From positions 137,265 to 201,264 of the IMG/VR virus record IMGVR_UViG_3300028374_000002: a stretch of 64,000 bases of DNA. One strand, 5' to 3'. Position numbers and translations under genes: made by a program. How positions within the stretch are numbered: position 1 is the stretch's first letter; every line of letters begins with the position of its first letter. The stretch is from a virus (lineage: Duplodnaviria; Caudoviricetes). Of this stretch, positions 9,536-61,624 are shown one piece after another. The notes under the pieces are model-generated. The model made no database searches, was not told the origin of the DNA, and worked only from the letters and a program-made list of their open reading frames with translations.

Positions 9536-9892
9536 ATGATATTAACTAGAGAGGTCTCTATCAAGATAAGTGAGTCTAACTTTCAATACTATGATAACTT
9601 AGGATATGATGTAACAATTGGTGAGTACTTATTAATACCAATAGATTTACTATCCAGGGGATCACATAGAGAGATAAAGTGTAAGTGTGATACTTGTGGT
9701 GTTGAGAAAGATGTGTTATTTAAAAACTATGTTAAATATGGTAATAAATGGGGTGAATATTTTTGTAGAAAGTGTTCAGAATTTAAAAGAAAGAAAACGC
9801 TTAAAAGAAATTTTGGTGTAGATTATCCTATTCAAAATGAAGATTTAAAAAAGAAAATAAAATCATCTAGTTCTTCTAAAGAAAAATCTTAA
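9536..9892 (+). CDS. Truncated paralogue of the KYGV endonuclease family (N-terminal Zn-binding part only)
   Basis: YYDNLGY...LSRGSHREIKCKCDTCG matches the N-termini of 15987-17771 and 20132-21868; one FGVDYP repeat, then stop. Confidence 0.6.
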   Translation: MILTREVSIKISESNFQYYDNLGYDVTIGEYLLIPIDLLSRGSHREIKCKCDTCGVEKDVLFKNYVKYGNKWGEYFCRKCSEFKRKKTLKRNFGVDYPIQNEDLKKKIKSSSSSKEKS

Positions 9893-10653
9893 TCAATAAC
9901 ATTATATCCATCTATTCCCCTAACTTTATCTATAGGTGGTACTTCAAATCCAAAACCATCTAAAAAGCTATAAAGCCTATCGTATAGAATAGTGTTTTTG
10001 CCTCTTATAACTTCAAATTCTTGAAATTCTTCGATTAGTTCTTCATCTGTAAGAGAATTGTTTCTAATCTCACCCATCATAGGTTGATTTTTAAAATAAT
10101 TATATAGGTAGAATAATGGATTACCATACATTTTTATATCCCCACCAACTTCTGGAAATCCTTCAAATGATGTTATGTTATTATTACTAATGTCTAAATC
10201 CCCCTCTATTCTTTTTGATATATAATCAAACGATTCTATTTTATTGTTACCACAAAACAGACCACCGTTTATAACTTCTGGTAGATATTTAAAACTTTTT
10301 ATTTCATTACCAGCAAAGTCATAATGATGACCTACTTTACTAGGACCACCTTTAAGTGTTTTTAGATTATTCATAGCACAACTATAATCACCACCAACCT
10401 CTGTTGGTCCATTATTTAGGCTAAATATACCTGACTTGTATGCATTAAAAGAAAATTTAACTTTATTTATTTTTATAGGTAGCATATATCCAACTTTATC
10501 AAATATAGAGGTTTGGAAGTTATCATTTATATCTATTGAGTAGTCATCATTTATAGTATAGTTTACTATACCGTGTGTTGTAACAAATTCTTTTATTTGG
10601 CTTATCTTTTCTTTATCACTTTTAAAGTCCTCATATAATTTAATATTTCCCAC
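9889..10653 (-). CDS. 21-aa LRR-like repeat protein (outlying paralogue of the 45.9-55.1 kb array)
   Basis: NYTINDDYSIDI, LKTLKGGPSKVG repeats and C-terminal EFEVIRGKNTILYDRL match the array genes; GTG start after a TTAATATATA motif. Confidence 0.8.
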   Translation of the reverse strand: MGNIKLYEDFKSDKEKISQIKEFVTTHGIVNYTINDDYSIDINDNFQTSIFDKVGYMLPIKINKVKFSFNAYKSGIFSLNNGPTEVGGDYSCAMNNLKTLKGGPSKVGHHYDFAGNEIKSFKYLPEVINGGLFCGNNKIESFDYISKRIEGDLDISNNNITSFEGFPEVGGDIKMYGNPLFYLYNYFKNQPMMGEIRNNSLTDEELIEEFQEFEVIRGKNTILYDRLYSFLDGFGFEVPPIDKVRGIDGYNVID

Positions 10654-10702
10654 GAAGTATATATTAAGTTAAAACTTTACTTTTTAAAAATATATAATAA
10701 AC

Positions 10703-12574
10703 ATGGAAAATAATAAAAAAGAAGGTGTTATAAACTTCTCAGTGAATGGGAATGCATCAATAGAAATTGATAAAACTAAGATATACATACACAAAAGCAA
10801 GACTTTAAATGCTTTAAATAAGGATTTAGTGAGTGTAAATGTTTATAAAAATAAATCAAGGCAAGAAGCTGAAGTAATCGAGGTATTAAAGAGAAATAGG
10901 AAAACATTTGTAGGTAAGGCAAGAGTAGGGAAAAAGACTATTTTTGTAGTTGCTGATGATAATAAAACACCTGTTGACTTCTATATAAAGGGTGGTTTAA
11001 CTTGTAAAAATGGACAGAAGGTAATAGTAGAGTTTACTAAATGGAATGATGGTAAATCACCACAAGGGAAGATAATTGAGATATTGGGAGACTCTGGTGA
11101 AAATAATGCAGAAATGAACTCAATAATGCATGATTATAATCTACCAGTAGAGTTTCCTAGAGATGTTGAGAAGGAAGCATCCAAAATCCCAAAGGAAATA
11201 TCAATGAAAGATATTAGCGAAAGGAGAGATATGAGGGGAATTAAGACATTCACTATTGATCCAAAGAGTGCCAAGGATTTTGATGATGCACTTTCAGTTA
11301 AGAATATTGAAAGTGGTTTAATAGAAGTAGGTATTCATATAGCAGATGTTGGACATTATGTAAAGGACGGAACTTTACTAAATGATGAGGCTATTAAAAG
11401 AGCAACATCGGTATATCTCGTTGATAGAGTTATACCAATGCTACCAGAGGTTTTAAGTAATGACATATGTTCTTTGAAGCCACATGTAGATAGATTAGCA
11501 TTTTCTGTAATCTTAACTATAAATGAGGATGGTAAGATATTAAAAGAATGGTTTGGTAAGACAATAATAAATTCAGATAATAGATTTACATATGCAGAAG
11601 CACAAAGTATAATAGAGGGAGATAGCCATGTATTAGATTACGAAGTTAGGATATTAGACACAATTGCAAGGAAAATAAGAAAGAAAAGAATTGGAGAAGG
11701 TTCAATAGAAATGGGTGGTGTAGAAATACAATTTAAGTTAGCACCAGATAATAAAAAACCAATAGGTGTTTATTATAAGGTACAGAAAGAGGCTAATAAG
11801 CTTATAGAGGAATATATGTTACTAGCCAACAAAGCAGTTGCTAAGAAGCTATCAAATGCACAAAGAACAGGTGTTTATAGAGTACACAACACTCCTTCTA
11901 TTGAGAAACTTAATGCACTAGCAGATATATGTGAAAGTTTTGGCTATAGTGTAGACTTAGAGAAAACTTCTAATGATTTAAAAAAGGAGTTGAATAAATT
12001 ACTAATAGAGATAAAAGACCAACCAGAAGAAAATATGATACAGACACTAGTAACTAGGTCTATGTCTAAGGCATATTATACTATAAAGAATATTGGACAT
12101 TATGGGTTAGGATTTTCACACTACTCACATTTTACATCTCCAATAAGAAGATACCCTGATCTTATAACACATAGGCTATTGTTAGGCTTATTAGAGAATA
12201 AGCCTAAGTCTAATCCTCTATCTATTGAAGAAGATGCAGAGTGGTGTTCACAAAGAGAAATAATAGCATCTAAGGCTCAGAGGGATTCTATAAAATACAA
12301 GCAAGTTGAATTTCTAATGGACAAGATTGGACAAATATTCCAAGGTGTCATCACTGGTGTTACTGACTGGGGCATATATGTAGAATTAACAGATAATAAA
12401 TGCGAGGGTATGATAGCACCAAATGATTTAGGAGATGGTAAGTGGAGAATAGATACTAAGAAATATACAGGTGATAATAAACTAGGTGATAAACTATCAC
12501 TGGGTGATGAAATTACAATTGTTGTAGATAATGTGGACTTGGATAAGAAACAGATAAACTTTAAAAAGTTTTAA
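10703..12574 (+). CDS. rnr: Ribonuclease R (RNB family)
   Basis: FTIDPKSAKDFDDALS catalytic motif, HIADV, YSHFTSPIRRYPDLITHR, C-terminal S1 domain. Confidence 0.93.
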   Translation: MENNKKEGVINFSVNGNASIEIDKTKIYIHKSKTLNALNKDLVSVNVYKNKSRQEAEVIEVLKRNRKTFVGKARVGKKTIFVVADDNKTPVDFYIKGGLTCKNGQKVIVEFTKWNDGKSPQGKIIEILGDSGENNAEMNSIMHDYNLPVEFPRDVEKEASKIPKEISMKDISERRDMRGIKTFTIDPKSAKDFDDALSVKNIESGLIEVGIHIADVGHYVKDGTLLNDEAIKRATSVYLVDRVIPMLPEVLSNDICSLKPHVDRLAFSVILTINEDGKILKEWFGKTIINSDNRFTYAEAQSIIEGDSHVLDYEVRILDTIARKIRKKRIGEGSIEMGGVEIQFKLAPDNKKPIGVYYKVQKEANKLIEEYMLLANKAVAKKLSNAQRTGVYRVHNTPSIEKLNALADICESFGYSVDLEKTSNDLKKELNKLLIEIKDQPEENMIQTLVTRSMSKAYYTIKNIGHYGLGFSHYSHFTSPIRRYPDLITHRLLLGLLENKPKSNPLSIEEDAEWCSQREIIASKAQRDSIKYKQVEFLMDKIGQIFQGVITGVTDWGIYVELTDNKCEGMIAPNDLGDGKWRIDTKKYTGDNKLGDKLSLGDEITIVVDNVDLDKKQINFKKF

Positions 12575-12593
12575 TTAGAACAAAAACTAGCAC

Positions 12594-12633
12594 AAATAAA
12601 AACATGACTGAATATTCAGTCATGTTTTTATTT
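12594..12633. terminator. Bidirectional terminator: 40-bp perfect palindrome between convergent rnr and portal genes
   Basis: aaataaaaacatgactgaat|attcagtcatgtttttattt. Confidence 0.8.
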
Positions 12634-12654
12634 TTGTACCAATCCATAATTATT

Positions 12655-14349
12655 TTAGAACTCAAACTCATCACCACCACCAGTATCTGGACTTGGATCA
12701 TCTGTGCCACCAATATCTAAATCATCACCACCGTCATCTATTGCAGAGTCGTCTGTGTCACCTGGTCCACCATCCATGGGAGCACCTCCCTCACCTTCGA
12801 AACCTTCAACACCAACTGCCGAACCCGCACCTTTATTATTATCTCTAGCCCAGTATCTTTCATTCTCTGCTTTCTCTTCTGGTGTTAATTTAAACACATT
12901 GTCCATAATCCATTCTATATGAAAGTATGGCTGTTCTTCATTTCTCATAACCCCTAATAAGCTACTAACAACATCTGCCTTTTTAGACATATTATTTATC
13001 TTCTTCCAGTCCTCAAATGTTTGATTGCTATAGAAGTATATGTCTATTTGGTTTATAAAGTTTTCATCATCAGTAAGTTCTGGGAATTCTATAAGCAGTT
13101 GTAACCTCACTGGTTTGACAATCATTTCTTTAAAATTCGCTCTAAGTCTACTAATAAAGTTATGAAATTTTATCTCATCTCTGGTCATATCTGATGCATC
13201 GGTAAATAAATTACCACCACCATTTTCAGACTCGAATCTCTGTACAGGTATTTTAGAAGCTCTTTTGAGTGCTCTGTAAAACCAATTTAACATAGTTTCA
13301 TCATTTAAATCATGACCTTCTTGCTTAACAAGTTCCATATTAGGAGTACCTGCATCACCCTCTGGGAACCATATTTGTTTATTATAATGCAATTGTTTAG
13401 AACCATTCATAGATAATGTTCCTAAATCATCATCCCATTCTACGTCTTCTGAATAGTCATGTATTAATTGTCCTATTTGTTCTTCTGCTCTTTGTCTAGA
13501 CATTCCCTTAATAGGAACTGTAAATTTTTGATAAACTTGAGCATTTAATACGTTAAACATTATTCTTGTCTGTTCAAGTATTTTAAGTTGGTTATATGGT
13601 TTTATAAGACCCTCCACATAAGAAGTTTCTGAATAATCATTTTGTGTAGAATATGATATATAAACTATCTGTGAATCTAGAAATATTCTTCTTAACTGTG
13701 GATCTTCTGGATATTGTATCCATAAGTGTCCAACATTAGGTTCATAAGCAGGTACTAATGTATCTGGTCTTAATCCATTAAATCCAATAATATTCTTCTT
13801 TTTATCATCAAAGATTATTTCTGATGCTAAATAGCCATCGATTAAGAAATCTTTCATCATATTCCACGCAGTAATATTGTCAGAAAATCCATACTTAGTA
13901 TAAACTTTTTTGAAATATTCTAGATATTTATCTTGTATCTCTTGTGAATATTCATTTGAAAGTGATCTTGCTGAACAAAAATCACTTTCATCGTTATATA
14001 CTATACATTCATCACACACAGAAGATACAAAATCTCTTATATCATCCTTTATAGAATACTCTCTAAGTATTCTTCTTTTATCAGCATATGATTTGTCAAG
14101 ATACGGAATAGATTTTCTACTTAATACAGATGATACGGCCCTTTGGCTGAAGAAATCATACATTGAATTCCCCTTTGATGAATAAGGATCTTCATTGATT
14201 CCTATACCTACTTGGTTTCTTATAATCATATCATTATAATTCATTCCATAATTTGAAAGATTTCTAAGTATTTTACTAAAGATTCCTTTATTCTCTATTG
14301 CTGAATTTGCAGTACCAAAATCTGAACTAGTAGTATTATATGTTGCCAT
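12655..14349 (-). CDS. gp20: Portal protein (T4 gp20-like)
   Basis: VCDECIVY, FLIDGYLASEII, YNQLKILE, WFPEGDAGTPNMELV, WFYRALKRASKIPVQRF, ITRDEIKF-like motifs. Confidence 0.88.
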   Translation of the reverse strand: MATYNTTSSDFGTANSAIENKGIFSKILRNLSNYGMNYNDMIIRNQVGIGINEDPYSSKGNSMYDFFSQRAVSSVLSRKSIPYLDKSYADKRRILREYSIKDDIRDFVSSVCDECIVYNDESDFCSARSLSNEYSQEIQDKYLEYFKKVYTKYGFSDNITAWNMMKDFLIDGYLASEIIFDDKKKNIIGFNGLRPDTLVPAYEPNVGHLWIQYPEDPQLRRIFLDSQIVYISYSTQNDYSETSYVEGLIKPYNQLKILEQTRIMFNVLNAQVYQKFTVPIKGMSRQRAEEQIGQLIHDYSEDVEWDDDLGTLSMNGSKQLHYNKQIWFPEGDAGTPNMELVKQEGHDLNDETMLNWFYRALKRASKIPVQRFESENGGGNLFTDASDMTRDEIKFHNFISRLRANFKEMIVKPVRLQLLIEFPELTDDENFINQIDIYFYSNQTFEDWKKINNMSKKADVVSSLLGVMRNEEQPYFHIEWIMDNVFKLTPEEKAENERYWARDNNKGAGSAVGVEGFEGEGGAPMDGGPGDTDDSAIDDGGDDLDIGGTDDPSPDTGGGDEFEF

Positions 14350-14415
14350 TTATGATTTGTATTTACATTATATATTAAGTTACAAACCTCCCATTAATCG
14401 CTTGATTAGCAAGGG

Positions 14416-15102
14416 TTAATACTTTTTAATATTTCTTTGTAATCTTTTTATATGTCCTTTAAGGACATCGTATTTTTCAGATATCTCAGAATTAACATCA
14501 TAAAAATCGCTTAATAATGATAATGTCATCTCTCTATGTCTCTGTTCTCTTTTAGCTAGCTTAGCTTCCCATATTTGCATAAGCTTCATAGGATCATATT
14601 TATTTTTTGGATGTTGGTGGTATAAGAATCTTGGAAGTATGTCTAAGCTAACTTTATGAACTACTTTTATTCTAGATACATCATATTCATTAAGAGCATA
14701 TTCAAATCCCAACCTCCTAAGTTCATCATATATACCTTGTAGGTCTACTTTTAGATAGTTATTATCTTCAAAATCTTTCTCTGTTATGTACTTATCAAAT
14801 AATAATACCCTAACCTCTAATGGTATAAAATTAAAGTTAACACCAAATGCTATAACCTTCCCAGACATCTTTCTATAATCTGCTAGAAATATTGGCGAGT
14901 ATTTCATCCAATTAGACTCATCTTGGTAATGTAAAAAATAGAATCCACCATTTGACATTTTAGAAACTGGTATTGCATTAAACTCTTTTGTAGTTTTTGT
15001 ATATTGCTCATAAAAGTATAAGCTGTTGTTCTTGAAATTATCAGAAATACTATTACCATGTAATAATAAATCTAGCTTTGTTCGTTTAAATAGTTCTGCC
15101 AT
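14416..15102 (-). CDS. Probable DNA end protector protein (gp2-like)
   Basis: YSPIFL...FGVNFNFIPLEVRVLLFD resembles the gp2 GLNLHYLP motif; lies between portal and gp4. Confidence 0.55.
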   Translation of the reverse strand: MAELFKRTKLDLLLHGNSISDNFKNNSLYFYEQYTKTTKEFNAIPVSKMSNGGFYFLHYQDESNWMKYSPIFLADYRKMSGKVIAFGVNFNFIPLEVRVLLFDKYITEKDFEDNNYLKVDLQGIYDELRRLGFEYALNEYDVSRIKVVHKVSLDILPRFLYHQHPKNKYDPMKLMQIWEAKLAKREQRHREMTLSLLSDFYDVNSEISEKYDVLKGHIKRLQRNIKKY

Positions 15103-15149
15103 AGTATATATATTATTTTAGAAAAAGAACATTTCTTAATATATACAAT

Positions 15150-15671
15150 ATGTTAAACTCAAAACCAAATAACAAAAAGTATCACCAAGGTAATTATAGA
15201 CCTAAGAATAGAGATAAGATAGTTAAAATGAATTCAGAAGGTGGTGTCTATTTCAGAAGTGGTCTAGAACAAAGATTTATGGTTTACTTAGACATGAATG
15301 ATAATGTTAAGAAATGGGGTGCAGAATGTTTGAAGATAAGCTACCAAAAAATGAATCCAAGTTCTGGTGCTTTAAAACAACATACTTACTACCCAGATTT
15401 CTACTATGAACTAAGAGGTAGTGATGGTGTTTTAAAACAAGTAGTTGTTGAAGTTAAGCCTATGAAAGAGTACAGAAATGTACAAATGCTTATGGAGAAT
15501 AAGCTAAAAGTACCAGAAAATGGCTTAAAGAAGTTGAGGAATTTTGAATACGACCTAAAAATGGCACATACAAACAGAAGCAAGTGGGAGGCAATGATAA
15601 AGTGGTGTGATAAAAAAGGTTATAAGTTTATAATAATAACAGAAGAGCATCTAAAGCAGTATGGCGTTTAA
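15150..15671 (+). CDS. gp4: Head completion nuclease (gp4, TnsA-like)
   Basis: YFRSGLE..FMVYLD, KKWGAE, HTYYPDFY, VEVKP, KWEA...F.IITEEHL. Confidence 0.85.
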   Translation: MLNSKPNNKKYHQGNYRPKNRDKIVKMNSEGGVYFRSGLEQRFMVYLDMNDNVKKWGAECLKISYQKMNPSSGALKQHTYYPDFYYELRGSDGVLKQVVVEVKPMKEYRNVQMLMENKLKVPENGLKKLRNFEYDLKMAHTNRSKWEAMIKWCDKKGYKFIIITEEHLKQYGV

Positions 15672-15943
15672 ATAACTAATATCTCGTTTAGGTTTAGTAA
15701 ATTATTCATCTCATGTCTCATAAGCTTAACTGTTTCTAAGCCTTTTATTAAATTAGATTTTAATAAAACATCAATAGGCTCACCAATAGCTCTCTCGTAG
15801 TATTCTGGGACTTTATTCCTGCCACTATAGATTGATTTTAAATATTTGTCTCTAGATTGTAAATCTGAATGTATGGAACAACCACATGGTCTGTTATTAT
15901 TCTTTTCACTTTCTTCCCATAGTTGTAAAACAGCTCTTGTCAT
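15668..15943 (-). CDS. Hypothetical protein
   Basis: 91-aa ORF with normal composition, convergent with gp4. Confidence 0.55.
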   Translation of the reverse strand: MTRAVLQLWEESEKNNNRPCGCSIHSDLQSRDKYLKSIYSGRNKVPEYYERAIGEPIDVLLKSNLIKGLETVKLMRHEMNNLLNLNEILVI

Positions 15944-15986
15944 ATATTATTATTTGTGATTATTATATATGAATTAATTTAAATGT

Positions 15987-17771
15987 TTAACTTTTATATA
16001 GCCATTTTTCTTGACCAGTCGAAAATATTCTATAATAACCCCTTTCGTTCATTATTTCTAACTCAGTCTTATCTTTATCAAATCCTTGTTTTACTAGCTT
16101 TCTTTTAGAGTAATTATATCTGTGTATTCTTTTCCCATTTATAACCCAAAAATAATTAGGTTTAGATAATGTATCAAAAACAAAACCTAACTTTTTATAG
16201 ACACCACCACCAAATAATGATATGTCGGCATATGATATTAAATATTCAAACTTAGTATTGTCTACGAAATACTTAAATAGTTTAGAAGCACCACCAATAA
16301 CACTAGTATTTAATTCATTACAAAACCTAATTAATTCATATTCTTTTTTATTGTTTGTTCTCCTCCATCCGAATGTCATTAAACTAACTAACTCATCATT
16401 AAAATATAATCCTAAGTTTATTGAAGAAGATGCATATCCTTGTATATGATTATTGTTTAGAAATAATTTATAATCTTTGGTATTGACCTCTCTTATATCA
16501 CATTTTCTAGCATATATTCTATTATTTACTTTACCCAATCTATTCCTTATGATTGATTTTATTATTTCTTTCTTGCTATCCCAGTCGTCCTCCCATATAT
16601 GTAGCAGAGATATCCCCTCTTCATTGCACTTATTTGTTTTACTGATATGATAATCACTACTTTTGAATAGTTCAGAGTGCCAGTATATGCCGTTACACTC
16701 AATAGCTATATTATATTCTGGTATGTATATATCAATCTCCTTACCTTTTAGTATTTTTTTATCATTTTTTATATAGCCAATTCCTAGACTCTCTATAAAA
16801 GAACCAACTTGTGTTTCGAAGTTAGAATATAATACACCAACTGGGTTGCATTGTGTACATATCATCTTACATGAGTTAAACCTTGCTCTTAATAAACCTT
16901 TGTTTATATCAAAGGTATTATTACATTCTTTATGTATTAATGAGAATGTCTCATTTTTATATGAATTAAGTATATACTTATCTGATATTAGTTCTGCATA
17001 TCTTTTAAATGTTTTTCTCTGTTTAGTATTCTTTGCCTTTAACTTAAAATTTTCATTCTTAGAAGGATGCTCACCCCAGTTTGAAAAATTTGTAGATTTT
17101 ACCTTCTCTTTATATTCTATAGTTTTTGAATAATTACTAACACCCCATTTCTCTATAGAAGTTTCTTTTATTTTGTCTTTATAGTAGTCTGATTTGGATA
17201 TCCAATCTACACCATATTTATCATTAAATGATTTTCTTGATTTGGATATAGTCGATTTACTTTGCATAGACCAGTCTACACCTAAGTTCTTTTGATTAGT
17301 TTCTTTTATTTTGTTAATAACGCCAATAGACTTAGAAGGATTAGTAACACCATACCTATCTAAAGATGTTTGTACGAACTTATCCTTCCATTCTTTCGTC
17401 TTAGAATAGTGGGAAACATTATATTTGTCTAGAAGGCTTTTCTTAAGAGTTTGTTTAACTTCTTCTGATTGCATTGGATTTTTAACACCATACTTTTTAA
17501 GAGAAGTCTTTTCAGATTTTATCTTTTTACAAGAGTTGCAATAATATATCCCACTTAGACCATTCGTGTAATTCCAGTAGTCTTTAAAGCCATTAGAGAC
17601 TTCTTTGTTACAGTTTTGGCATATACATGTAATCTTAGATGAAGTTCCCTTAGACAAGTGTTCTACGCTTATATCTATATATTTACCAACACTAATATCA
17701 TATCCAAATGATTTGTAATATTTTATATTCCTAGAGTGACCCTTTATCTTTATCTTTTTTTCTTTTATCAT
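15987..17771 (-). CDS. Putative homing endonuclease, KYGV family
   Basis: KYGV/KWGV repeats, CTQCNP, EIDIYIPEYNIAIECNGIYWHS, GNAT-like tail. Confidence 0.75.
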   Translation of the reverse strand: MIKEKKIKIKGHSRNIKYYKSFGYDISVGKYIDISVEHLSKGTSSKITCICQNCNKEVSNGFKDYWNYTNGLSGIYYCNSCKKIKSEKTSLKKYGVKNPMQSEEVKQTLKKSLLDKYNVSHYSKTKEWKDKFVQTSLDRYGVTNPSKSIGVINKIKETNQKNLGVDWSMQSKSTISKSRKSFNDKYGVDWISKSDYYKDKIKETSIEKWGVSNYSKTIEYKEKVKSTNFSNWGEHPSKNENFKLKAKNTKQRKTFKRYAELISDKYILNSYKNETFSLIHKECNNTFDINKGLLRARFNSCKMICTQCNPVGVLYSNFETQVGSFIESLGIGYIKNDKKILKGKEIDIYIPEYNIAIECNGIYWHSELFKSSDYHISKTNKCNEEGISLLHIWEDDWDSKKEIIKSIIRNRLGKVNNRIYARKCDIREVNTKDYKLFLNNNHIQGYASSSINLGLYFNDELVSLMTFGWRRTNNKKEYELIRFCNELNTSVIGGASKLFKYFVDNTKFEYLISYADISLFGGGVYKKLGFVFDTLSKPNYFWVINGKRIHRYNYSKRKLVKQGFDKDKTELEIMNERGYYRIFSTGQEKWLYKS

Positions 17772-17828
17772 TATATGTTATATCTATATATCTAAAAGAG
17801 TTGTTGCTAAAGGGTGTGAAAATATAAA

Positions 17829-18194
17829 TTATAGAGAATGAATACCATTACCATCGTTAGAACCCTCTATTGATAGTACCTTTATTAGATTATCACCATC
17901 GCCTTTCTTTTTATAGAGTTCATTAAATCCCTTAGCTAACCCTCGTTTAAATATTTCTGTGAAGTATGCAAAGGCATTTACTGACTTAGCTTCGTTAAAG
18001 TTATACCAATTTTGGTACATGTCTAAAACGCCTGATTGGTAGCAATCCATTTTATCATCATTTGACCAGTACCTCATTTTCTTAATGGTTTTATTTCCTA
18101 GTAATTCTAGCATCTTCTCAGCCTTTCTAGTAAGCTTACCTCTTGCTTTTGATACTATTATTTCTACATATAGTTCTTTGTTGTTTAAATACAT
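17829..18194 (-). CDS. gp55: Late-transcription sigma factor (T4 gp55-like, short)
   Basis: YLNNKELY, DCYQSG..DM..NWYNFN, NAFAYFTEI motif characteristic of gp55. Confidence 0.8.
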   Translation of the reverse strand: MYLNNKELYVEIIVSKARGKLTRKAEKMLELLGNKTIKKMRYWSNDDKMDCYQSGVLDMYQNWYNFNEAKSVNAFAYFTEIFKRGLAKGFNELYKKKGDGDNLIKVLSIEGSNDGNGIHSL

Positions 18195-19106
18195 TTATGT
18201 TCTATTATTTTTATATATATTATATATATTTTTATCAATAAGTTTTAACTTTTCATTAACAGATTCGTCATATTTGATTATTAATAGATTTATTCTATTA
18301 TTTGCACAAAATTCTTGTTTTATCTTATCTTTTTTTCTATTATATTCCAAATTTTTAACACCACCAAAGTATTTTACTGGCTTATAGTGTTGTTCACCAT
18401 TATATTCAATACAAATATTGTATTTTGGTATATAGAAATCAAATCTTAAAGGAAGCTTATTTACACAACCATTAAAGGATTTTTGAAATTCATATAATAT
18501 TTTATTTTTGTCTAGAAAAATACTTATCATACTCTCCCCCTTTGACTTATTACAGTCTGGGCATCCATTCATGCTATATAAGTGATTATCAGGTCTTTGG
18601 CTAAAAATGCCATGCTTAACACATATTATATCAACATGTGTTTTGTTATTTGTATAATTAACATTAGAATAATCCCATTTATGTTCTCCCCATATACTTT
18701 TAGAACTATCTATAAAGTCAGCTTGTAGTTTTGCCCTTTTACATACATCACAATCTTTTTCTTGGTTTAGATGTTGTTTAGGATAAATTTGAAAATAAGT
18801 ACCATGACTTCGGCAACCTATTGTTAATTTACTCCTAGAACACTTGTACAAAGTTTTTGAATAATCCCATTTATGTTCTCCCCATACTCTCTTAGACTCT
18901 TGTATGAATTTATCTGTTGTCTTTACTTTTGTAGAGCATAATGGACACAGGTTGCCTTTTCTTATTTGTTTTAAGTTTCTAGAAAATTTAGTTTTGTGTT
19001 TATTGCAGACTATAATGGATTTAGTTGTATTGTTAGTATATTCGAAATATGAAAAATTATAATTAATTAGTTCTGTAACTTCTTCATAAAAGTTTGCTTT
19101 TTTCAT
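18195..19106 (-). CDS. Putative homing endonuclease (repeated CxxH/CxxC DNA-binding modules plus PD-(D/E)XK domain)
   Basis: Duplicated VWGEHKWDYS modules, CVKHG.F, GCPDC, SKGE, LRFDFYIP, IEYNGEQHY. Confidence 0.72.
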   Translation of the reverse strand: MKKANFYEEVTELINYNFSYFEYTNNTTKSIIVCNKHKTKFSRNLKQIRKGNLCPLCSTKVKTTDKFIQESKRVWGEHKWDYSKTLYKCSRSKLTIGCRSHGTYFQIYPKQHLNQEKDCDVCKRAKLQADFIDSSKSIWGEHKWDYSNVNYTNNKTHVDIICVKHGIFSQRPDNHLYSMNGCPDCNKSKGESMISIFLDKNKILYEFQKSFNGCVNKLPLRFDFYIPKYNICIEYNGEQHYKPVKYFGGVKNLEYNRKKDKIKQEFCANNRINLLIIKYDESVNEKLKLIDKNIYNIYKNNRT

Positions 19107-19190
19107 ATAGGCTATATATTAAGTTAAATATGTAACAAATAATTGGTGATAAGTAGTTTATTTTTATTATATTTGTATAAAACTTAAAAT

Positions 19191-20102
19191 ATGAAAAAAG
19201 CATTTATATTTATAGGGTTGCCATTGTCAGGTAAATCTATGTATATTGAATCTAGAAAGAAAAAAGACTGGATTGGTATTAAGGTTGTATCTGCTGATAA
19301 TATAAAGCTAACACACCCTGACTATAATCACAACGTCCCAGAACATGTGCATTTGTGGAGTACAAAAATGGCAGAGGAAGAGATAATTACTCTAGCTAAA
19401 CAAGGGTTGTCTAAGATTGTTATGGATGGTGGTGGTATTAACAATAGCTATACCATCAGAATAATTAATATGCTTAAGGACAATGGGTATAAAACAGAAT
19501 TAATTCATATCAAAACCCCTTTACAAGTATGTCTTAGCAGAAATGAAAAACGTGAGAGGAAAGTACCACACATTGATATAATAAGAAAAGCAGCCAAAGA
19601 GAATATACAATTTAATAGAATATCAGAAATTTGTGATATTTCAACTGTTGTTAATCACTTTTCTAATAAAAACATATTTGTAGATATGGATGGTGTTATA
19701 GCTGGATTATCTTTACTACCTACATATGAGGACAAAGTAGATTTTGTTAATAATGAAATATTCAAAACGCTATTACCAGTAAACCCCGTAATTGATAAAC
19801 TAGAAAAATTAAAAGAAGAAGGAAGAAATATCTATATATTATCAGCAATTCCAAATTCACTTTCGTATATAGATAAAAATGAGTGGTTAGATAAGCATTT
19901 CAACATAGACAAGGATAAGAGATTTTTTGTAAATTCGGGTAGGCACAAAGCAGAGATGTTAGATAATCTTAGATTAAAGTTAAAGCTAGAGAAAAGGGAT
20001 GTATGTCTTATAGAAGACACACACTCTACTCTAGAAAAAGTAAGAGATTATGATATGAATCCTATACACGTATCAGAATTTCTCACAGATGGTTTTGTAT
20101 AA
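19191..20102 (+). CDS. P-loop kinase fused to HAD phosphatase (Pnkp-like / 5'-nucleotidase-like)
   Basis: IGLPLSGKS Walker A, VMDGGG, CLSRNEKR lid; C-terminal IFVDMDGV HAD motif and LIEDT. Confidence 0.75.
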   Translation: MKKAFIFIGLPLSGKSMYIESRKKKDWIGIKVVSADNIKLTHPDYNHNVPEHVHLWSTKMAEEEIITLAKQGLSKIVMDGGGINNSYTIRIINMLKDNGYKTELIHIKTPLQVCLSRNEKRERKVPHIDIIRKAAKENIQFNRISEICDISTVVNHFSNKNIFVDMDGVIAGLSLLPTYEDKVDFVNNEIFKTLLPVNPVIDKLEKLKEEGRNIYILSAIPNSLSYIDKNEWLDKHFNIDKDKRFFVNSGRHKAEMLDNLRLKLKLEKRDVCLIEDTHSTLEKVRDYDMNPIHVSEFLTDGFV

Positions 20103-20103
20103 C

Positions 20104-20136
20104 AAAAAAGCTCTTGAATAACAAGAGCTTTTTAAT
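20104..20136. terminator. Bidirectional terminator, copy 1 of a 33-bp direct repeat
   Basis: aaaaaagctcttg-aataa-caagagctttttaat. Confidence 0.8.
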
Positions 20137-21868: not shown

Positions 21869-21911
21869 AGCTTAATTCTTATATGCAATTTGTCTTTGGA
21901 AGTTTCAAACA

Positions 21912-21944
21912 AAAAAAGCTCTTGAATAACAAGAGCTTTTTAAT
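21912..21944. terminator. Terminator, copy 2 of the 33-bp direct repeat
   Basis: Identical to 20104-20136. Confidence 0.8.
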
Positions 21945-21963
21945 TTAAAAACTTTTAATGTAT

Positions 21964-23250: not shown

Positions 23251-23314
23251 GTGTTATTATTTTATTTTTTTTCTATATTGTATATATTAATAGCAAAAAG
23301 CCATTTTTTTCTAT

Positions 23315-24247: not shown

Positions 24248-24319
24248 ATTTTTATATATTAAATTAAACTTTCTCTAATCTAATTAATAAGTAATGTATA
24301 CAATACTAAACAAAAAGAC

Positions 24320-25873: not shown

Positions 25874-25921
25874 ATTCTATATATTTTATATGCAAAGATA
25901 AACAAAATTAATATATAAACA

Positions 25922-32727: not shown

Positions 32728-32745
32728 TTTTTTTATTATTTTTAT

Positions 32746-33741: not shown

Positions 33742-33811
33742 AATTTATTCTGTTTTATTATTAAATGCTTTTATATATAAAAAGATGTTGGCTTGTTATC
33801 AAATAGGTAAA

Positions 33812-45836: not shown

Positions 45837-45867
45837 ATATATTCCTAACCAAACTCAACTTACCTAT

Positions 45868-45877
45868 TTAATATATA
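45868..45877 (+). promoter_or_regulatory. Putative phage late promoter TTAATATATA ahead of the repeat-protein array
   Basis: Exact motif recurring just upstream of at least 18 start codons in the window. Confidence 0.6.
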
Positions 45878-45881
45878 GGTT

Positions 45882-49956: not shown

Positions 49957-50066
49957 ATGAAGCATATAAAACCTTATAAAAATATTAGACAGGTTACAAA
50001 CATTTATAAGTGATAATGGTTTAGATATGCTGGATTTGAAAGAAATTAAAAAAAATAATAGAATAA
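49957..50066 (+). pseudogene. Collapsed remnant of an array gene (5' end fused to 3' end)
   Basis: atgaagcatataaaaccttataaaaatat (MKHIKPYK) joined out of frame to ttagacaggttacaaacatttata...aaaataatagaataa (LDRLQTFI...IIE*). Confidence 0.85.
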
Positions 50067-50749: not shown

Positions 50750-51418
50750 ATGAAACATATAAAACCTTATAAGATATTCGAGAGCAATAGTCCTAACTTC
50801 CCAACCACAAGAGAGGAAGTTATACAAGTGTGTGAAAAGTATGAAATAGAAAACTACACTATTAATGATGATTTAAGCATTGATGTTGATGATAACGTTC
50901 ATTTAGGTTTTAAAATGTTAGAATATTTACCTCTTAAATTTAATTATGTAAGTGGTAGTTTTAATTGTTTTTATAATAAATTAACATCATTGGAAGGTTG
51001 TCCACAAAAAGTAGGTGGTAGCTTTGGTTGTTTTTATAATAATTTAGAATCATTAGAAGGTTGTCCACAAACAGTAGGTGGTGATTTTTCTTGTTCTGAT
51101 AATGAATTAGTATCATTGAAAGGTGGCCCACATACAGTGGGTGGTAATTTTAATTGTGTTTATAATAAATTAACAGACTTAGAACACTTCCCAGAAGTAA
51201 ATGGAATTATAAGTATAAAGAAAAACACAGTATATCTATTAGTACATACTTTCATTGAAAATGCTAATAGTTTCCTCATAGAAGATTTTATAGACTATGA
51301 AATAGTTAGAAACGGAGACACTGTTATGTTAGATAGATTACAAACATTCATTAGAGATAATGATTTAGAGATGCCTGACTTAGAAGAAATTAAAGAACAC
51401 TATAAAATAATAGAATAA
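50750..51418 (+). CDS. LRR-like repeat protein, array copy 7
   Basis: 5' about 200 nt identical to copy 6, then diverges. Confidence 0.85.
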   Translation: MKHIKPYKIFESNSPNFPTTREEVIQVCEKYEIENYTINDDLSIDVDDNVHLGFKMLEYLPLKFNYVSGSFNCFYNKLTSLEGCPQKVGGSFGCFYNNLESLEGCPQTVGGDFSCSDNELVSLKGGPHTVGGNFNCVYNKLTDLEHFPEVNGIISIKKNTVYLLVHTFIENANSFLIEDFIDYEIVRNGDTVMLDRLQTFIRDNDLEMPDLEEIKEHYKIIE

Positions 51419-51420
51419 AC

Positions 51421-52218
51421 ATGAAATATATAAAACCTTATAAGATATTTGAGAATATATCTAACTATTTCCCAACTACAAGAGAAGAAGTTGTGGAAGT
51501 ATGTATAAAATTTGAAATTATAAATTATACTATCAATGATGATTTAAGTATAGATGTTGATGGTGATGTTGATATGGCGAATAAGGGAATAAGCAGCTTA
51601 CCAATTAAATTTGGAAAGGTAAGTGGTGATTTTGCTTGTGAGTCTAATTATCAATTCTTTACACTAGAGGGATGTCCTTATGAGGTTGGTGGGAGTTTTA
51701 GTTGTAATACCAATGAACTTTTTTCACTAAGGGGGTGTCCTAAGATAATAGGAATTGATTTTGATTGTGGGTATTGTCCAATAGATTCATTGGAAGGTTG
51801 CCCAGAAACAGTAGGTGGTAATTTTTATTGTGAGCATAGTGGTATAGAATCATTAGAATATATGACAAAAAATATTGGGGGATCTGTTATTTTAAACATG
51901 AATGAAATAAAATCATTCAAAGGGTGTCCAGATAGTATATTTGGTAATTTGTATATAAGTGATAATAATATCACAGACTTAGAATATATACCAAATGTAT
52001 CAGATTATATACACTTGCAAAGGAATCCAGTACACTCTATAGTAAACTCTTTCATTATAAAAGGTGATGATATGCTAATTGAAGATTTCCAAGACTATGA
52101 TATAATAATTGATAATAAATCTATAAATTTGTTTAGGTTAGAAAATTTCTTTAAAGATTTTAACCTACCAATGCCAGACTTAAAAAAAATAAAAAAACAT
52201 TATAAAATAATAGAATAA
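51421..52218 (+). CDS. LRR-like repeat protein, array copy 8 (divergent, 265 aa)
   Basis: TLEGCPYEVGGSFSCNTN-type repeats. Confidence 0.85.
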   Translation: MKYIKPYKIFENISNYFPTTREEVVEVCIKFEIINYTINDDLSIDVDGDVDMANKGISSLPIKFGKVSGDFACESNYQFFTLEGCPYEVGGSFSCNTNELFSLRGCPKIIGIDFDCGYCPIDSLEGCPETVGGNFYCEHSGIESLEYMTKNIGGSVILNMNEIKSFKGCPDSIFGNLYISDNNITDLEYIPNVSDYIHLQRNPVHSIVNSFIIKGDDMLIEDFQDYDIIIDNKSINLFRLENFFKDFNLPMPDLKKIKKHYKIIE

Positions 52219-52220: not shown

Positions 52221-53045
52221 ATGAAATATATAAAACCTTACAAGATATTTGAGAGTGTTAGTCCTAATTTCCCAACTACAAGGGATGAAGTTATAGAAGT
52301 GTGTGAAAAGTATGAAATATATAACTACATCATTAATGATGATTTAAGCATTAATGTTGAAGGTGATGTTGATTTAAATATTGATATCGATGAGGATATA
52401 GGCCTACAAAATATAAAATTAAAATATTTACCTGTTGTATTCAACTATGTAAAAGGCTCATTTTATTGTCAAGATAATGAATTAATATCACTAGAAGGTT
52501 CACCACGTGATGTTGGAATTTTTGATTGCTCTAATAATAAATTAAAAACACTTGAAGGTGGGCCAGTGGATGTGCGTGGTTTTTTCAGTTGTGATGATAA
52601 TAATTTAAAAACATTAAATGGGTCACCTTCTAATGTTTCTAGGTGGTTTTCCTGTTCTAATAATAATTTAAAAACATTAGAGGGTTCTCCAAATGTTGTA
52701 AACGGAGAGTTTGTTTGTCATAATAATGAGTTAGAATCATTAAAGGGTATTACTAAAAATATAACTGATAGATTATATATAAACCACAATAATATTAAAT
52801 CGTTGGATTACTTTCCAACAACAACAAGTATAATATTCACACAAGGAAATCCAATAGATGTACTAATAAGCACTTTTATCAGAAATGATAACTTCAATGA
52901 TCTTTTAGAAGAATTTGAAGAATTTGAAATATTAAGAAATGGTGTTGTTGTTTATCTAGATAGATTAAAAACCTTCATAGAAGGATTTGATTTGAAAATG
53001 CCTAGCTTAGATAGAATTAAACAAGAGTATAAAATAATAGAATAA
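52221..53045 (+). CDS. LRR-like repeat protein, array copy 9 (divergent, 274 aa)
   Basis: SLEGSPRDVGIFDCSNN-type repeats. Confidence 0.85.
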   Translation: MKYIKPYKIFESVSPNFPTTRDEVIEVCEKYEIYNYIINDDLSINVEGDVDLNIDIDEDIGLQNIKLKYLPVVFNYVKGSFYCQDNELISLEGSPRDVGIFDCSNNKLKTLEGGPVDVRGFFSCDDNNLKTLNGSPSNVSRWFSCSNNNLKTLEGSPNVVNGEFVCHNNELESLKGITKNITDRLYINHNNIKSLDYFPTTTSIIFTQGNPIDVLISTFIRNDNFNDLLEEFEEFEILRNGVVVYLDRLKTFIEGFDLKMPSLDRIKQEYKIIE

Positions 53046-53047: not shown

Positions 53048-53716
53048 ATGAAACATATAAAACCTTATAAAATATTTGAAAGCAACAGCCCTAACTTCCC
53101 AACTACAAGGGATGAAGTTATAGAAGTGTGTGAAAAGTATGAAATATATAACTACATCATTAATGATGATTTAAGCATAGATGTTGCTGATGATGTTTTT
53201 TTAACTAGAAGCTTAGAGTATCTACCACTTAAATTTAACCATGTGGAAGGTTCTTTTTTATGTGGCTTTAATGAATTAAAAACATTGGAGGGTAGTCCAC
53301 AAACATTAGGTGGGTTTTTTGATTGCTCTTATAATAAACTAAAGACATTAGAAGGTTGTCCACAAACAATAGTACGTGGTTCTTTTAAATGTTCTAATAA
53401 TAATATAATGACATTAGAAGGTAGTCCACAAACAATAAATGGTGATTTTATTTGTAGTGATAATAAGTTGGTAGATTTAGAACATTTCCCAGAAGTAAAT
53501 GGTATAATAAATATAGAGAAAAACACAGTAAATTTATTAGTATATACTTTTATTAATAAAGTGGATACTTTTATGATAGAAGACTTCATAGATTATGAAA
53601 TAGTTAGAAACAGAGATACTGTTATGTTAGATAGACTAGAGACCTTTATTAGTGATAATGATTTAATGATGCCAGACTTAAAAGAAATAAAAAAACATTA
53701 TAAAATAATAGAATAA
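53048..53716 (+). CDS. LRR-like repeat protein, array copy 10
   Basis: Same architecture, 222 aa. Confidence 0.85.
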   Translation: MKHIKPYKIFESNSPNFPTTRDEVIEVCEKYEIYNYIINDDLSIDVADDVFLTRSLEYLPLKFNHVEGSFLCGFNELKTLEGSPQTLGGFFDCSYNKLKTLEGCPQTIVRGSFKCSNNNIMTLEGSPQTINGDFICSDNKLVDLEHFPEVNGIINIEKNTVNLLVYTFINKVDTFMIEDFIDYEIVRNRDTVMLDRLETFISDNDLMMPDLKEIKKHYKIIE

Positions 53717-53718: not shown

Positions 53719-54450
53719 ATGAAACATATAAAACCTTACGAGATATTTGAGAGTGCTAGTCCTAATTTCCCAACTACAAGAGAGGAAGTTATAGAAGTGT
53801 GTGAAAGGTATAGAATAAAAAACTATACTATTAATGATGATTTAAGTATCGATGTTGATGGTGATGTTTATTTAGTGGATAAAGGCTTAGAATACTTACC
53901 ACTTAAATTTAATTATGTAAGTGGTAATTTTGTTTGTTCTGATAATAAATTAAAGACATTAGAAGGTAGTCCACAAACAGTAGGTGGTTATTTTTTTTGT
54001 TTTGAAAATGAACTAAAGACATTAGAAGGTAGTCCACAAACAGTAGGTGGTACTTTTAATTGTTCTTACAATGAATTAATAACATTAGAAGGTAGCCCAC
54101 AAACAGTAAATGGGAATTTTCTTTGTTTTGGAAATGAATTAATAACATTAGAAGGTAGCCCACAAACAGTAAATGGGAATTTTCTTTGTTTTGGAAATGA
54201 ATTAAAAGACTTAGAATACTTCCCAGAAGTAAGTGGTAATGTATACATAAAGGGAAACACAGTATATCTATTAGTGTATACTTTTATTAGAACTGCTAGT
54301 AGTTTTATGATAGAAGATTTTATAGACTATGAAATAGTTAGGAACAGAGATACTGTTATGTTAGATAGATTACAAACATTCATAAGGGATAATGATTTAA
54401 AGATGCCTAATTTAAAAGAAATTAAAAAACACTATAAAATAATAGAATAG
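53719..54450 (+). CDS. LRR-like repeat protein, array copy 11
   Basis: 243 aa; exact 63-bp tandem duplication at 54070-54205. Confidence 0.85.
   Translation: MKHIKPYEIFESASPNFPTTREEVIEVCERYRIKNYTINDDLSIDVDGDVYLVDKGLEYLPLKFNYVSGNFVCSDNKLKTLEGSPQTVGGYFFCFENELKTLEGSPQTVGGTFNCSYNELITLEGSPQTVNGNFLCFGNELITLEGSPQTVNGNFLCFGNELKDLEYFPEVSGNVYIKGNTVYLLVYTFIRTASSFMIEDFIDYEIVRNRDTVMLDRLQTFIRDNDLKMPNLKEIKKHYKIIE
54070..54205 (+). repeat. Exact 63-bp tandem duplication (one repeat unit) inside array copy 11
   Basis: aatgaattaataacattagaaggtagcccacaaacagtaaatgggaattttctttgttttgga twice. Confidence 0.9.
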
Positions 54451-54452: not shown

Positions 54453-55064
54453 ATGAAACATATAAAACATTACAAGATATTTGAGAGTACAAGTCCTAAC
54501 TTCCCAACTACAAGAGAGGAAGTTATAGAAGTGTGTGAAAGGTATAGAATAAAAAACTATACTATTAATGATGATTTAAGTATCGATGTTGATGGTGATG
54601 TTCATTTATATAGTAAAAATTTAGAATACTTACCACTTAGATTTAGTTATGTGAGTGGTGCATTTCTATGTTTTGATAATGAATTAAAAACATTAGAAGG
54701 TTGTCCACAAACAGTAGGTAGGTCTTTTTCCTGTTCTAATAATTTTTTAGCATCGTTGAAAGGATGTCCACAAACAGTACGTGGTAGTTTTAATTGCTCT
54801 TATAATAAAATAACAGACTTAGAACACTTTCCAGAAGATAGTCATACCATATACATAGAAAATAATCCAATATACAATCTAATAAATACGTTTATTTTTA
54901 AACCAAAAACTGATAGCTTTATGATAGAAGACTTTATAGATTATGAGATAGTTAGAAACGGGGATACTGTTATGTTGGATAGGCTACAAACATTTATAAG
55001 GGATAATGATTTAGAAATGCCTGATTTAGATGAAATTAAAAAACACTATAAAATAATAGAATAA
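54453..55064 (+). CDS. LRR-like repeat protein, array copy 12
   Basis: 203 aa, same caps. Confidence 0.85.
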   Translation: MKHIKHYKIFESTSPNFPTTREEVIEVCERYRIKNYTINDDLSIDVDGDVHLYSKNLEYLPLRFSYVSGAFLCFDNELKTLEGCPQTVGRSFSCSNNFLASLKGCPQTVRGSFNCSYNKITDLEHFPEDSHTIYIENNPIYNLINTFIFKPKTDSFMIEDFIDYEIVRNGDTVMLDRLQTFIRDNDLEMPDLDEIKKHYKIIE

Positions 55065-60185: not shown

Positions 60186-60878
60186 TTATTTATTCTTAAG
60201 TTTTCTATCTAGAATTTTAGAAATATTAGATCCAATAGTCATATGTATATTTTTTATATCATCTGATTCAACCTCTTCGATTTCACCCATAAACTTATAA
60301 AAAAATCTATAATATACGCTAGAGTCCAAATCCTCTGGTATCTCTTTTTTAATTGATAAGTCTATCTTATAGCTATTGTTTATGTTTATTTCGAAATCAA
60401 AAGTAGTTTTAGAACATGGTGTTGTTTTAAATTTAGGCTGGTACTTAACCTCAAATACTGAATAGTCTGTTATCTTATTTTTCCTCATATAAAAATTTAA
60501 AAACATTGCAGGTGCTTCTATAAAGTCTGATAGTGTTTGTAAATCATCACCAAAATCATTTGACTCTATTATATCCTCCATTCTTTTCTTTAAATCTATA
60601 ATTGAATCAAAATCTACCTTATGGTAAACGCAATTTATATCATATAAATATACAAATGAATTATCTTCTAACACAGTTTTGTCTAAATCTACTTTAAATA
60701 TAAATTTAGTGTGTATTATAGATACATCCTCAGCCTTTAACCCATGTATTGAAATAACTAGTTTTAAAAACTTTTTATCAATAGTTGATTCATATAGTGT
60801 CTCTACAGAATTAACCATTCCGCTATTTTCATCAAATATATCGCTAATTACATTTTCTATTTCAGATATCTTTATCAT
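60186..60878 (-). CDS. Hypothetical protein
   Basis: 230-aa ORF coupled to the upstream nucleotidyltransferase. Confidence 0.65.
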   Translation of the reverse strand: MIKISEIENVISDIFDENSGMVNSVETLYESTIDKKFLKLVISIHGLKAEDVSIIHTKFIFKVDLDKTVLEDNSFVYLYDINCVYHKVDFDSIIDLKKRMEDIIESNDFGDDLQTLSDFIEAPAMFLNFYMRKNKITDYSVFEVKYQPKFKTTPCSKTTFDFEININNSYKIDLSIKKEIPEDLDSSVYYRFFYKFMGEIEEVESDDIKNIHMTIGSNISKILDRKLKNK

Positions 60879-60880
60879 TA

Positions 60881-61624
60881 TTAAAATTGTTTTTCATAAG
60901 ATTCTTTTCTTAAATCAAGAACTTTCTCTATATATTTATTTCTTCTAAGTAATTTGAATACTAAATTACCTGTAGAATACTCACCACTTTCACTTTCTAG
61001 GCCAGACTTTCTATACTTTTTTATTTTATCCCAGACTTTCTTAACACGCTTTTTATATTCATCATAATCATATTTATCTATTTCGTCTTCTAAGTCATCA
61101 ACTAGCATCATAATACCCTTAGCCTTTTCTTTAATATCCATATCGTCTGGTATAAAGTCAACCTTAACAGGCTCTATATTCCATTTATTATTAAGTACTG
61201 AATACACACCAGAAGACCTATGTGGTTCTTTAATATCTTGTATATAGACTTCAACTTCAAAACCATTGACATATAAATCATATGATTTATTCCATAGGTT
61301 TTTAGCAGAATCCGTAAACTTTTTAACTAGTTTAGTATCAGAGTTAACCTTTTCAAAATCTATTATTATGTGTAAATCAAAGTCTGAATATTTCTCAGAC
61401 CAATTAAAGTTAGCCAGTGATCCAGTTAAGGTAATATCATCTATTTCAACATTTAGGCTAGTTGTATTATAAAAGTCTTGTGATATAGTTAATAACTTTT
61501 CACGCACCTCTTCTTTCATACTTTTATCTTCCCAAACTTTAGTGTTTAATTCATCTTTTATGTGAAAAGATTTAACTGCATCGAAATCCTTTTCCACAAA
61601 TTCTAAAAACTTAGTTACTTTCAT
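60881..61624 (-). CDS. Pol-beta superfamily nucleotidyltransferase
   Basis: ITLTGSLANFNWSEKYSDFDLHII (GS...DxD) and VEVYIQD third acidic residue; leader MKVTKFLEFVE. Confidence 0.8.
   Translation of the reverse strand: MKVTKFLEFVEKDFDAVKSFHIKDELNTKVWEDKSMKEEVREKLLTISQDFYNTTSLNVEIDDITLTGSLANFNWSEKYSDFDLHIIIDFEKVNSDTKLVKKFTDSAKNLWNKSYDLYVNGFEVEVYIQDIKEPHRSSGVYSVLNNKWNIEPVKVDFIPDDMDIKEKAKGIMMLVDDLEDEIDKYDYDEYKKRVKKVWDKIKKYRKSGLESESGEYSTGNLVFKLLRRNKYIEKVLDLRKESYEKQF

Follow-up and report, generated by a model that had tools for sequence, protein, structure and literature searches.

A short N-terminal leader on numerous proteins of an uncultured huge phage resembles the capsid-targeting sequence of phage T4

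The internal proteins of the phage T4 head are small, basic and DNA-associated. Mullaney and Black reportedly described in 1996 a capsid-targeting sequence (CTS) that is carried by T4 IPI, IPII and IPIII (and Alt) and is removed by the prohead protease gp21. In this study, we evaluate a similar N-terminal leader encoded by numerous genes of an uncultured phage, as found in a 64,000-nucleotide stretch of DNA (hereafter the window) that corresponds to bases 137265-201264 of a 201-kb viral contig (IMG/VR record IMGVR_UViG_3300028374_000002). For T4, mapping with amber suppressors assigned targeting mainly to residues 4 and 7 of the tag and processing to residues 8 and 10 (PMC9026906), and the tag is the sole common part of the T-even internal proteins, which are diverse and fast-changing (PMC9026906, PMC3012670). 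The leader resembles this sequence in that it is an N-terminal peptide of 10-19 residues on diverse proteins, shares the core K-T-[FY]-x-E-[FY], carries aromatics three residues apart at the mapped T4 targeting positions, and is mostly followed, at variable distance, by a site that ends in Glu. The likeness extends to the genomic setting, as evident by head genes of the gp20, gp21 and gp23 types and by carriers that reside in variable islands like T-even internal-protein loci. However, the leader prefix of the contig phage is three residues longer (MK[YH]L) and its positions 8-10 lack a fixed I-x-E, there are 40 to over 90 carriers per genome rather than the three or four of T4, and the bodies behind the leader are acidic and include leucine-rich repeat (LRR) arrays and enzymes, whereas T4 bodies are basic.

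Two other systems invite comparison. Encapsulin cargo-loading peptides are, like the leader, short, disordered and portable, and they address diverse cargo to the interior of a shell with the HK97 fold. However, these peptides mostly sit at the C-terminus, bind directly to the shell protein, remain uncleaved and are unrelated to the leader in sequence. In the phages phiKZ, 201phi2-1 and SPN3US, head and ejection proteins carry long N-terminal propeptides, which a protease related to gp21 cleaves at (S/A/G)-x-E (PMC5694885). The common ground with these giants lies in the related protease that cuts after Glu, in the proposal that their propeptides target proteins into the prohead, and in the identical N-terminal 15-mer shared by the paralogues gp53 and gp54. 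The phiKZ-type propeptides differ in that most exceed 100 residues rather than sharing one short motif, about eight proteins are processed, and the residue three before the Glu is small rather than hydrophobic or aromatic. Within the library that could be searched, we found no paper tying capsid-targeting sequences to huge phages.

The contig (CheckV completeness 28%) has a GC content of 28%, and its DNA occurs in lake and salt-lake metagenomes; the public runs listed as containing it include no RNA data set. It derives from an uncultured phage of a genome class of roughly 640 kb. Its tail sheath is 64% identical to that of LR745206, a complete 635-kb genome, and 58% identical to that of LR756502 (642 kb), both from uncultured huge phages. 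More remote tail-sheath relatives are LR756504, LR756501 (735 kb), LR756500 and Tenacibaculum phage pT24; the last of these, with a GC content of 28.7%, a host from the same phylum and a head module that is homologous, served as a control. Genes were called crudely (first ATG, greedy non-overlap) for the whole contig and three fetched genomes.

The initial annotation listed 19 leader-bearing N-termini in the window, and all of these were found where it had placed them. As a count of carriers, however, the number is too low. In a matrix scan of the whole contig, 40 of 226 genes exceeded the carrier threshold of >8 bits, as did 93 of 882 genes in LR745206 and 63 of 954 in LR756501, compared to 0.3-0.7% of internal windows. 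This matrix covers the leader core (positions 5-12) and was trained on LR745206 leaders; with it, 0 of 283 N-termini of pT24 scored >10 bits. The leader spans 10-12 residues with the consensus M-K-[YH]-[LI]-K-x-[FY]-[ENK]-[ES]-[FY]. A loose regular expression matched 26 of 203 non-array N-termini versus 2.9% of internal 14-residue windows (binomial p 2.5e-10), and a back-translated DNA pattern gave 33 matches in the contig, 53 in LR745206, 62 in LR756502 and 31 in LR756504, with 0-1 for the reversed-pattern control. These internal-window and reversed-pattern controls rule out an artefact of composition. Among 72 LR745206 leaders in fixed register, column information is high at residues 1-10 and reaches background by residue 13, and the informative columns include positions on which no selection had been made (Y/H at 3, F/Y at 10). 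Information content is thus confined to residues 1-12, in an N-terminal position before diverse mature bodies; genome-wide, 168 leader proteins form 127 clusters when their bodies are compared by BLAST.

The likeness to the T4 tag that had been suggested from the outset could now be measured. When 249 crudely called N-termini of T4 open reading frames (ORFs) were scored with the LR745206-trained matrix, ipI ranked first (15.0 bits) and gp61.1 second (14.5 bits), while ipIII and ipII ranked fourth and fifth (11.9 bits); the third rank is an artefact of a mis-called imm start, and only 0.3% of internal T4 windows exceeded 10 bits. T4 residues K2-T3-Y4-Q5-E6-F7 align with leader positions 5-10, such that Y4 and F7 fall on the two conserved aromatics. 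Given this alignment, the leader of the huge phages corresponds to a T4 tag lengthened by three residues at its N-terminus. The form typical of LR756501, MIKKF-x-x-FE, is lengthened by one residue only. As a separate observation on T4 itself, gp61.1 (NC_000866 18966-19130, L055) is a 54-amino-acid hypothetical protein adjoining the primase gene, and its start, MKTFKEFIKED, is as CTS-like as that of ipI.

The genes in the window that carry the leader are as follows (coordinates, strand, description).

9889-10653 (-): dispersed paralogue of the LRR array; leader MGNIKLYEDF, 9.1 bits; GTG start 5 nucleotides downstream of a TAATATATA motif
26300-26914 (-): clade-conserved gene with a cysteine-hydrolase/nicotinamidase-like fold (weak fold match); leader MKYINTFES
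26983-27543 (-): ORFan with no family found; leader MKRIQNFES
37677-39941 (+): 754-amino-acid protein directly upstream of the tail sheath gene; weak leader MKYLKRKNIYLSEA, 4.6 bits
39938-40462 (+): 174-amino-acid acidic protein; leader MKHLKKYKLFLEDF, 13.3 bits, kept in orthologues
45882-46550 (+): LRR array gene 1, behind a TAATATATA motif; leader MKHIKPYKIFES at codons 1-12, 13.4 bits
46553-47095 (+): LRR array gene 2, with leader
47098-47766 (+): LRR array gene 3, with leader
47769-48437 (+): LRR array gene 4, with leader
48440-49195 (+): LRR array gene 5; leader MKYIKPYKIFEN
49197-49919 (+): non-LRR gene within the array, with an acidic body and no Pfam family; leader MKHIKLYEEY, 11.6 bits
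50069-50737 (+): LRR array gene 6; leader MKHIKPYKIFES; the start is the internal ATG at 50069, not 50027
50750-51418 (+): LRR array gene 7, with leader
51421-52218 (+): LRR array gene 8, with leader
52221-53045 (+): LRR array gene 9, with leader
53048-53716 (+): LRR array gene 10, with leader
53719-54450 (+): LRR array gene 11, with leader
54453-55064 (+): LRR array gene 12; leader MKHIKHYKIFES
60881-61624 (-): viral nucleotidyltransferase-like protein (phrog_36119); weak leader MKVTKFLEFVE, 6.4 bits

The bodies of these proteins had been described as otherwise unrelated. For the window this is an overstatement, because 13 of the 19 genes belong to one LRR family; the remaining six are indeed without detectable similarity. 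Matrix scores are 9-14 bits for 15 of the genes and 5.6-7.2 bits for those at 26300, 26983 and 60881, with the gene at 37677 scoring a weak 4.6 bits. For these weaker examples, the orthologues in LR745206 and LR756502 have clear leaders. Orthologues of the gene at 26983 begin MKHIRTYENY and MKHIRQFESY, those of the gene at 37677 begin MKYLSKRSEYLKS and MRYLKQREEFIRN, and the LR745206 orthologue of the gene at 60881 begins MKLNKFYEFVQ. Searches of 20 leader proteins against Pfam and PHROGs matched almost nothing; the 754-amino-acid protein yielded no family in either collection and no usable match in the ESM Atlas. A truncated remnant of an array gene (MKHIKPYK, with stop codons soon after) is present at 49957-50010 (+), between the gene at 49197-49919 and that at 50069.

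The leader is under selection at the level of amino acids, since synonymous codon use at every conserved leader position is that of the genome as a whole (e.g. Lys AAA 74% versus 74%). Moreover, Leu is encoded by five different codons in leaders, and Phe and Tyr are swapped. When 18 pairs of orthologues from the contig and LR745206 were inspected, nine had the leader pattern in both members, and most others had a close variant. For the 204-amino-acid protein encoded at 26300-26914, 1158 homologues were found, and among the matches listed (58-98% identical to the query) the leader is kept in 120 of 120. These start M-[KRQ]-[YF]-[IL]-K-x-[FY]-E-[NS]-[YFH], which is followed by a variable linker of 4-5 residues and then by a highly conserved body. 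This protein is encoded by a core gene of the clade and has invariant Asp and Cys residues as well as a weak match to nicotinamidase/isochorismatase-like folds; it may be a nicotinamide adenine dinucleotide (NAD)-related enzyme.

AlphaFold2 models are consistent with a leader that is separate from the rest of the protein. For the 26300 protein, a confident nicotinamidase/cysteine-hydrolase-like fold is predicted, with residues 1-10 having a predicted local distance difference test (pLDDT) score <50 and no secondary structure. Likewise, the solenoid of LRR array gene 1 (45882) has a pLDDT of about 97, whereas residues 1-14 fall <50 and again have no secondary structure. The leader is therefore predicted to be disordered and detached from the fold on two unrelated folds. 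The prefix style also moves together within each lineage, as evident by MK[YH]LK in the contig phage and LR745206 and by MIK in LR756501, including inside orthologous families. Such a concerted shift fits one shared receptor for all carriers. Taken together, the properties of the leader are those of a short linear motif that is read by a partner.

If the leader functions like the T4 tag, the phage should also encode the machinery for prohead assembly and processing. The relevant features of the window are listed below.

2255-3958 (-): gp23-like major capsid protein (PF07068, E 5e-28)
4039-6177 (-): gp21/S77-type prohead protease fused to a scaffold-like C-terminal half, 712 amino acids (phrog_207, E 2e-27)
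4831-5313 (-): eleven tandem 14-amino-acid repeats NLDKNI-x-YSEY[IVL]AE, inside the protease-scaffold gene
12655-14349 (-): T4 gp20-like portal protein (PF07230, E 3e-53)
29380-32727: large terminase with intein
40538-44029: tail sheath

By homology, the window thus holds a head module of the T4 type with gp20-, gp21- and gp23-type genes. The protease gene looks intact, and its product is assigned to the S77 (T4 gp21) family on the basis of the profile match and the catalytic His and Ser. In an alignment with T4 gp21, the His motifs EFDHP/ELNHP and the Ser motifs VSSRAAG/VSSRGLG line up. The family PF03420 falls below the Pfam cut-off for this protein (E 0.0025), and the same family is recorded on close homologues.

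Candidate sites for such a protease are common at the leader. In 94-100% of leaders versus 37-42% of controls, the first aromatic is followed by a Glu within 6 residues, and hydrophobic-x-Glu occurs within 8 residues in 71-84% of leaders versus 23-29% of controls, with the next residue being mostly S, N or A. The leaders of the LRR array offer the textbook T4-type sequence I-F-E↓S, where the arrow marks the putative cut. No conserved cleavage site was found past residue 12, and since nothing is conserved beyond this point there is no fixed downstream site. Similar sequences are present in the head proteins themselves. The N-terminus of the protease has an invariant I-V-E↓N (the T4 gp21 counterpart is L-I-E), I-A-E↓N occurs eleven times in its C-terminal repeats, and the capsid protein has I-N-E↓N at the position of the T4 gp23 cut when aligned with T4 gp23 and relatives. 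These sites suggest that the protease has kept a T4-like preference.

The repeats of the protease-scaffold gene each end in the T4-type I-A-E, and by eye YSEYIAE is close to the T4 tag YQEFIAE. About ten copies are conserved in each of LR745206, LR756502, LR756504 and LR756501, whereas LR756500 has degenerate repeats and pT24 has none. Across six genomes, which are related to one another, the YSEY[IVL]AE repeats co-occur with abundant leaders: carriers are numerous where at least ten repeats are present, less so where the repeats have degenerated, and lacking in pT24. A KLFES motif and an acidic tract lie downstream of the repeats in the same gene. In the capsid protein, codons 30-44 encode WMSEYAEF, which resembles the scaffold repeat, followed by the I-N-E↓N noted above. 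This arrangement is conserved in LR745206 and LR756501 but is replaced in pT24 and T4.

The location and upstream sequences of leader genes also set them apart from other genes. They cluster, with 27 adjacent pairs in LR745206 versus 9.7 expected (0 permutations reached this value) and 24 versus 6.9 in the contig. Genes with T4 homologues (replication, nucleotide metabolism, shell, tail) carry the leader in 0 of 23, 0 of 32 and 0 of 29 cases. Runs of up to about a dozen consecutive small leader genes were observed at 450900-459400 and 607600-626000 of LR745206 and at 10300-26700 of LR756502; these are near the genome ends and resemble hyperplastic islands. The host-type Bacteroidota -7 motif TAnnTTTG is rarer upstream of leader genes, being found for 6 of 144 versus 105 of 940 others (about 11% of non-leader genes; odds ratio 0.35, p 0.007). 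Conversely, the phage motif AATATATA is commoner upstream of leader genes (42 of 144 versus 123 of 940; odds ratio 2.7, p 4.5e-6), and variants of it precede the portal, capsid, protease, sheath and tube genes. This promoter bias, seen in upstream sequences, fits expression of leader genes outside the early class that would be served by host RNA polymerase. In about 100 genes of the contig and LR745206 (e.g. window positions 45862-45881 and 10654-10673), AATATATA ends 4-5 nucleotides before the start codon, a spacing that suggests leaderless mRNAs. In a second class (portal, capsid, sheath, tube), the motif is located 18-36 nucleotides upstream and an A-rich stretch comes next.

Because the leader matches a tag that loads proteins into the T4 head, it probably marks head cargo. 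The explanation we favor, which in our estimation is evenly poised between right and wrong, is that the leader is a greatly expanded, lineage-specific form of the T4-style capsid-targeting propeptide. By this account, the two aromatics spaced three apart would dock a freshly translated protein onto the scaffold core of a prohead that is still being assembled, and this core would most likely be the scaffold-like half of the protein encoded at 4039-6177. The gp21-type protease would then cut after the nearby Glu (hydrophobic-x-Glu, e.g. the I-F-E↓S of the LRR array), which would release the mature product within the head and allow it to exit with the DNA. Docking, cleavage, encapsidation and injection of leader proteins are each inferred by analogy with T4, and action of the delivered proteins in the first minutes of infection would follow only from the same analogy.

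By our own arithmetic, about 100 kinds of 18-kDa protein in tens of copies each would amount to 10-20% of the DNA mass. This is on a similar scale to the roughly 1000 internal-protein molecules of T4 (PMC3012670) and to the SPN3US ejection proteins, which total >40 MDa (PMC7411985).

Several observations weigh against a capsid-targeting function. The bodies of leader proteins are acidic, with a median isoelectric point (pI) of 4.8 versus 5.55 (p 3e-11). The median body pI ranges over 4.8-5.1 and 57-85% of bodies fall below pI 5.5, so these are not basic carriers like those of T4. The tag is present on 7-18% of all genes, and to our knowledge no known set of packaged proteins is so large. Since Glu adds to the matrix score, the Glu statistics are in part circular. 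There is no [LI]-x-E site at a fixed distance, and the residue three before the Glu is often aromatic or polar; in K-T-F-E-S-F, the form seen most often, this residue is not hydrophobic. The second rank of gp61.1, a protein with no virion annotation, indicates that proteins other than known head proteins can also carry the motif. In addition, the leader matrix scores the scaffold repeats no higher than other internal windows. Since the matrix does not single out these repeats, the proposed docking site is a guess, and the related idea that the leader is a copy of the scaffold repeat is retained only as speculation.

A leader that is conserved, disordered and portable would suit any tag, and we consider it unlikely, though deserving of serious attention, that it is a linear recognition tag for a partner other than the prohead, with the likeness to T4 reflecting a simple amphipathic aromatic motif that has arisen twice. 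Candidate partners, no more probable than this explanation itself, include a phage chaperone, a Clp-type system, a membrane or polar site, or a modifying enzyme. The very many carriers, their acidic bodies so unlike T4 internal proteins, and a T4 protein (gp61.1) that has the same core without known packaging would all fit such a tag. Furthermore, the phage encodes a ClpS homologue at 29097-29375 (+) (PF02617, E 2.5e-15), and the contig includes ORFs with DnaK- and DnaJ-like N-termini, as judged by the look of the gene list rather than by family match. N-termini that begin with M-K are not ClpS N-degrons under the N-end rule, and because the leaders begin in this manner the possibility that they are ClpS N-degrons was dropped. 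Also weighing against a partner outside the prohead, the matrix picks precisely the internal proteins among 249 T4 N-termini, the conserved aromatics are those mapped as targeting residues in T4, and the Glu-ending site after the motif is compatible with the gp21-type protease encoded by the phage. We observed no gene for an enzyme or other partner that accompanies the leader genes.

It is also conceivable, at a decidedly low probability, that the leader is a historical relic of one explosively duplicating family of small genes or of a recombined 5′ cassette, of which the N-terminus diverges most slowly and has no role in sorting. The islands and tandem arrays of leader genes, the membership of 13 of 19 window genes in one LRR family, and a loosely similar acidic stretch that by eye follows the leader in many small LR745206 proteins are in keeping with such an origin. 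However, clearly different folds reside behind the leader (LRR solenoid, cysteine-hydrolase-like, nucleotidyltransferase-like and the 754-amino-acid protein), no upstream DNA is shared outside of the arrays, and in the 120 listed homologues of the 26300 protein the leader stays constant while the adjoining linker drifts. The prefix also shifts in concert in each lineage, which needs selection by a common partner. Least probable by far is that the leader is a nucleotide-level by-product at gene starts, caused by AT-rich codons, initiation without a Shine-Dalgarno sequence, or leaderless mRNAs. The 28% GC genome, the AATATATA motif 4-5 nucleotides before the ATG of about 100 genes, and the commonness of M-K starts everywhere might be taken to suggest this, but synonymous codon use in the leader equals that of the genome, Leu is written with five codons while Phe and Tyr interchange, the close promoter motif is found for only 42 of 144 leader genes, and pT24, with equal GC and the same host phylum, has no such N-termini. 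On the strength of codon usage and the pT24 control, this explanation was rejected as largely refuted.

The window has some further features. The large terminase is apparently in pieces across 29380-34327 (-). A 171-amino-acid ORF at 33812-34327 matches the N-terminal part of T4 gp17, an ORF at 32746-33741 is zinc-finger and endonuclease-like, and a 1115-amino-acid ORF then contains the remainder and the intein; in relatives, the terminase is a single gene of about 710 amino acids. An RNase R/II-type exoribonuclease (RNB, E 9e-110) is encoded between head genes at 10703-12574 (+), and a TnsA-like endonuclease ORF is located at 15150-15671 (+).

Extending the capsid-targeting explanation to the whole clade of 460-735-kb phages, we regard it as doubtful but possible that these have scaled up the T4 tag to a general address system, by which about 100 fast-evolving and mostly acidic proteins are bound for the capsid and for delivery. 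The same degree of doubt attaches to the proposal that the cargo of this scaled-up system includes tandem diversified LRR binders, a nicotinamidase-like hydrolase and a nucleotidyltransferase. In such a system, the scaffold half of the protease may be where the tag docks, given that its eleven YSEYIAE repeats are nearly the T4 tag.

Should the tag do something else, it would still lack an explanation, and few such short linear motifs in any viral proteome are as widespread. If it does load heads, a 10-residue motif would predict from sequence alone the delivered proteins of uncultured huge phages, a set amounting to about a tenth of their otherwise unannotated genes. The leader by itself would then predict the injected counter-defence arsenal of these phages and name candidates for first-minute takeover and anti-defence functions, including hypervariable LRR arrays that resemble a repertoire of binding proteins. 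It would also add to the T4 tag a divergent second one with which foreign proteins could be packaged into phage heads. Most broadly, the T4 CTS would prove to be ancient and scalable, and common to Straboviridae and the largest known phages.

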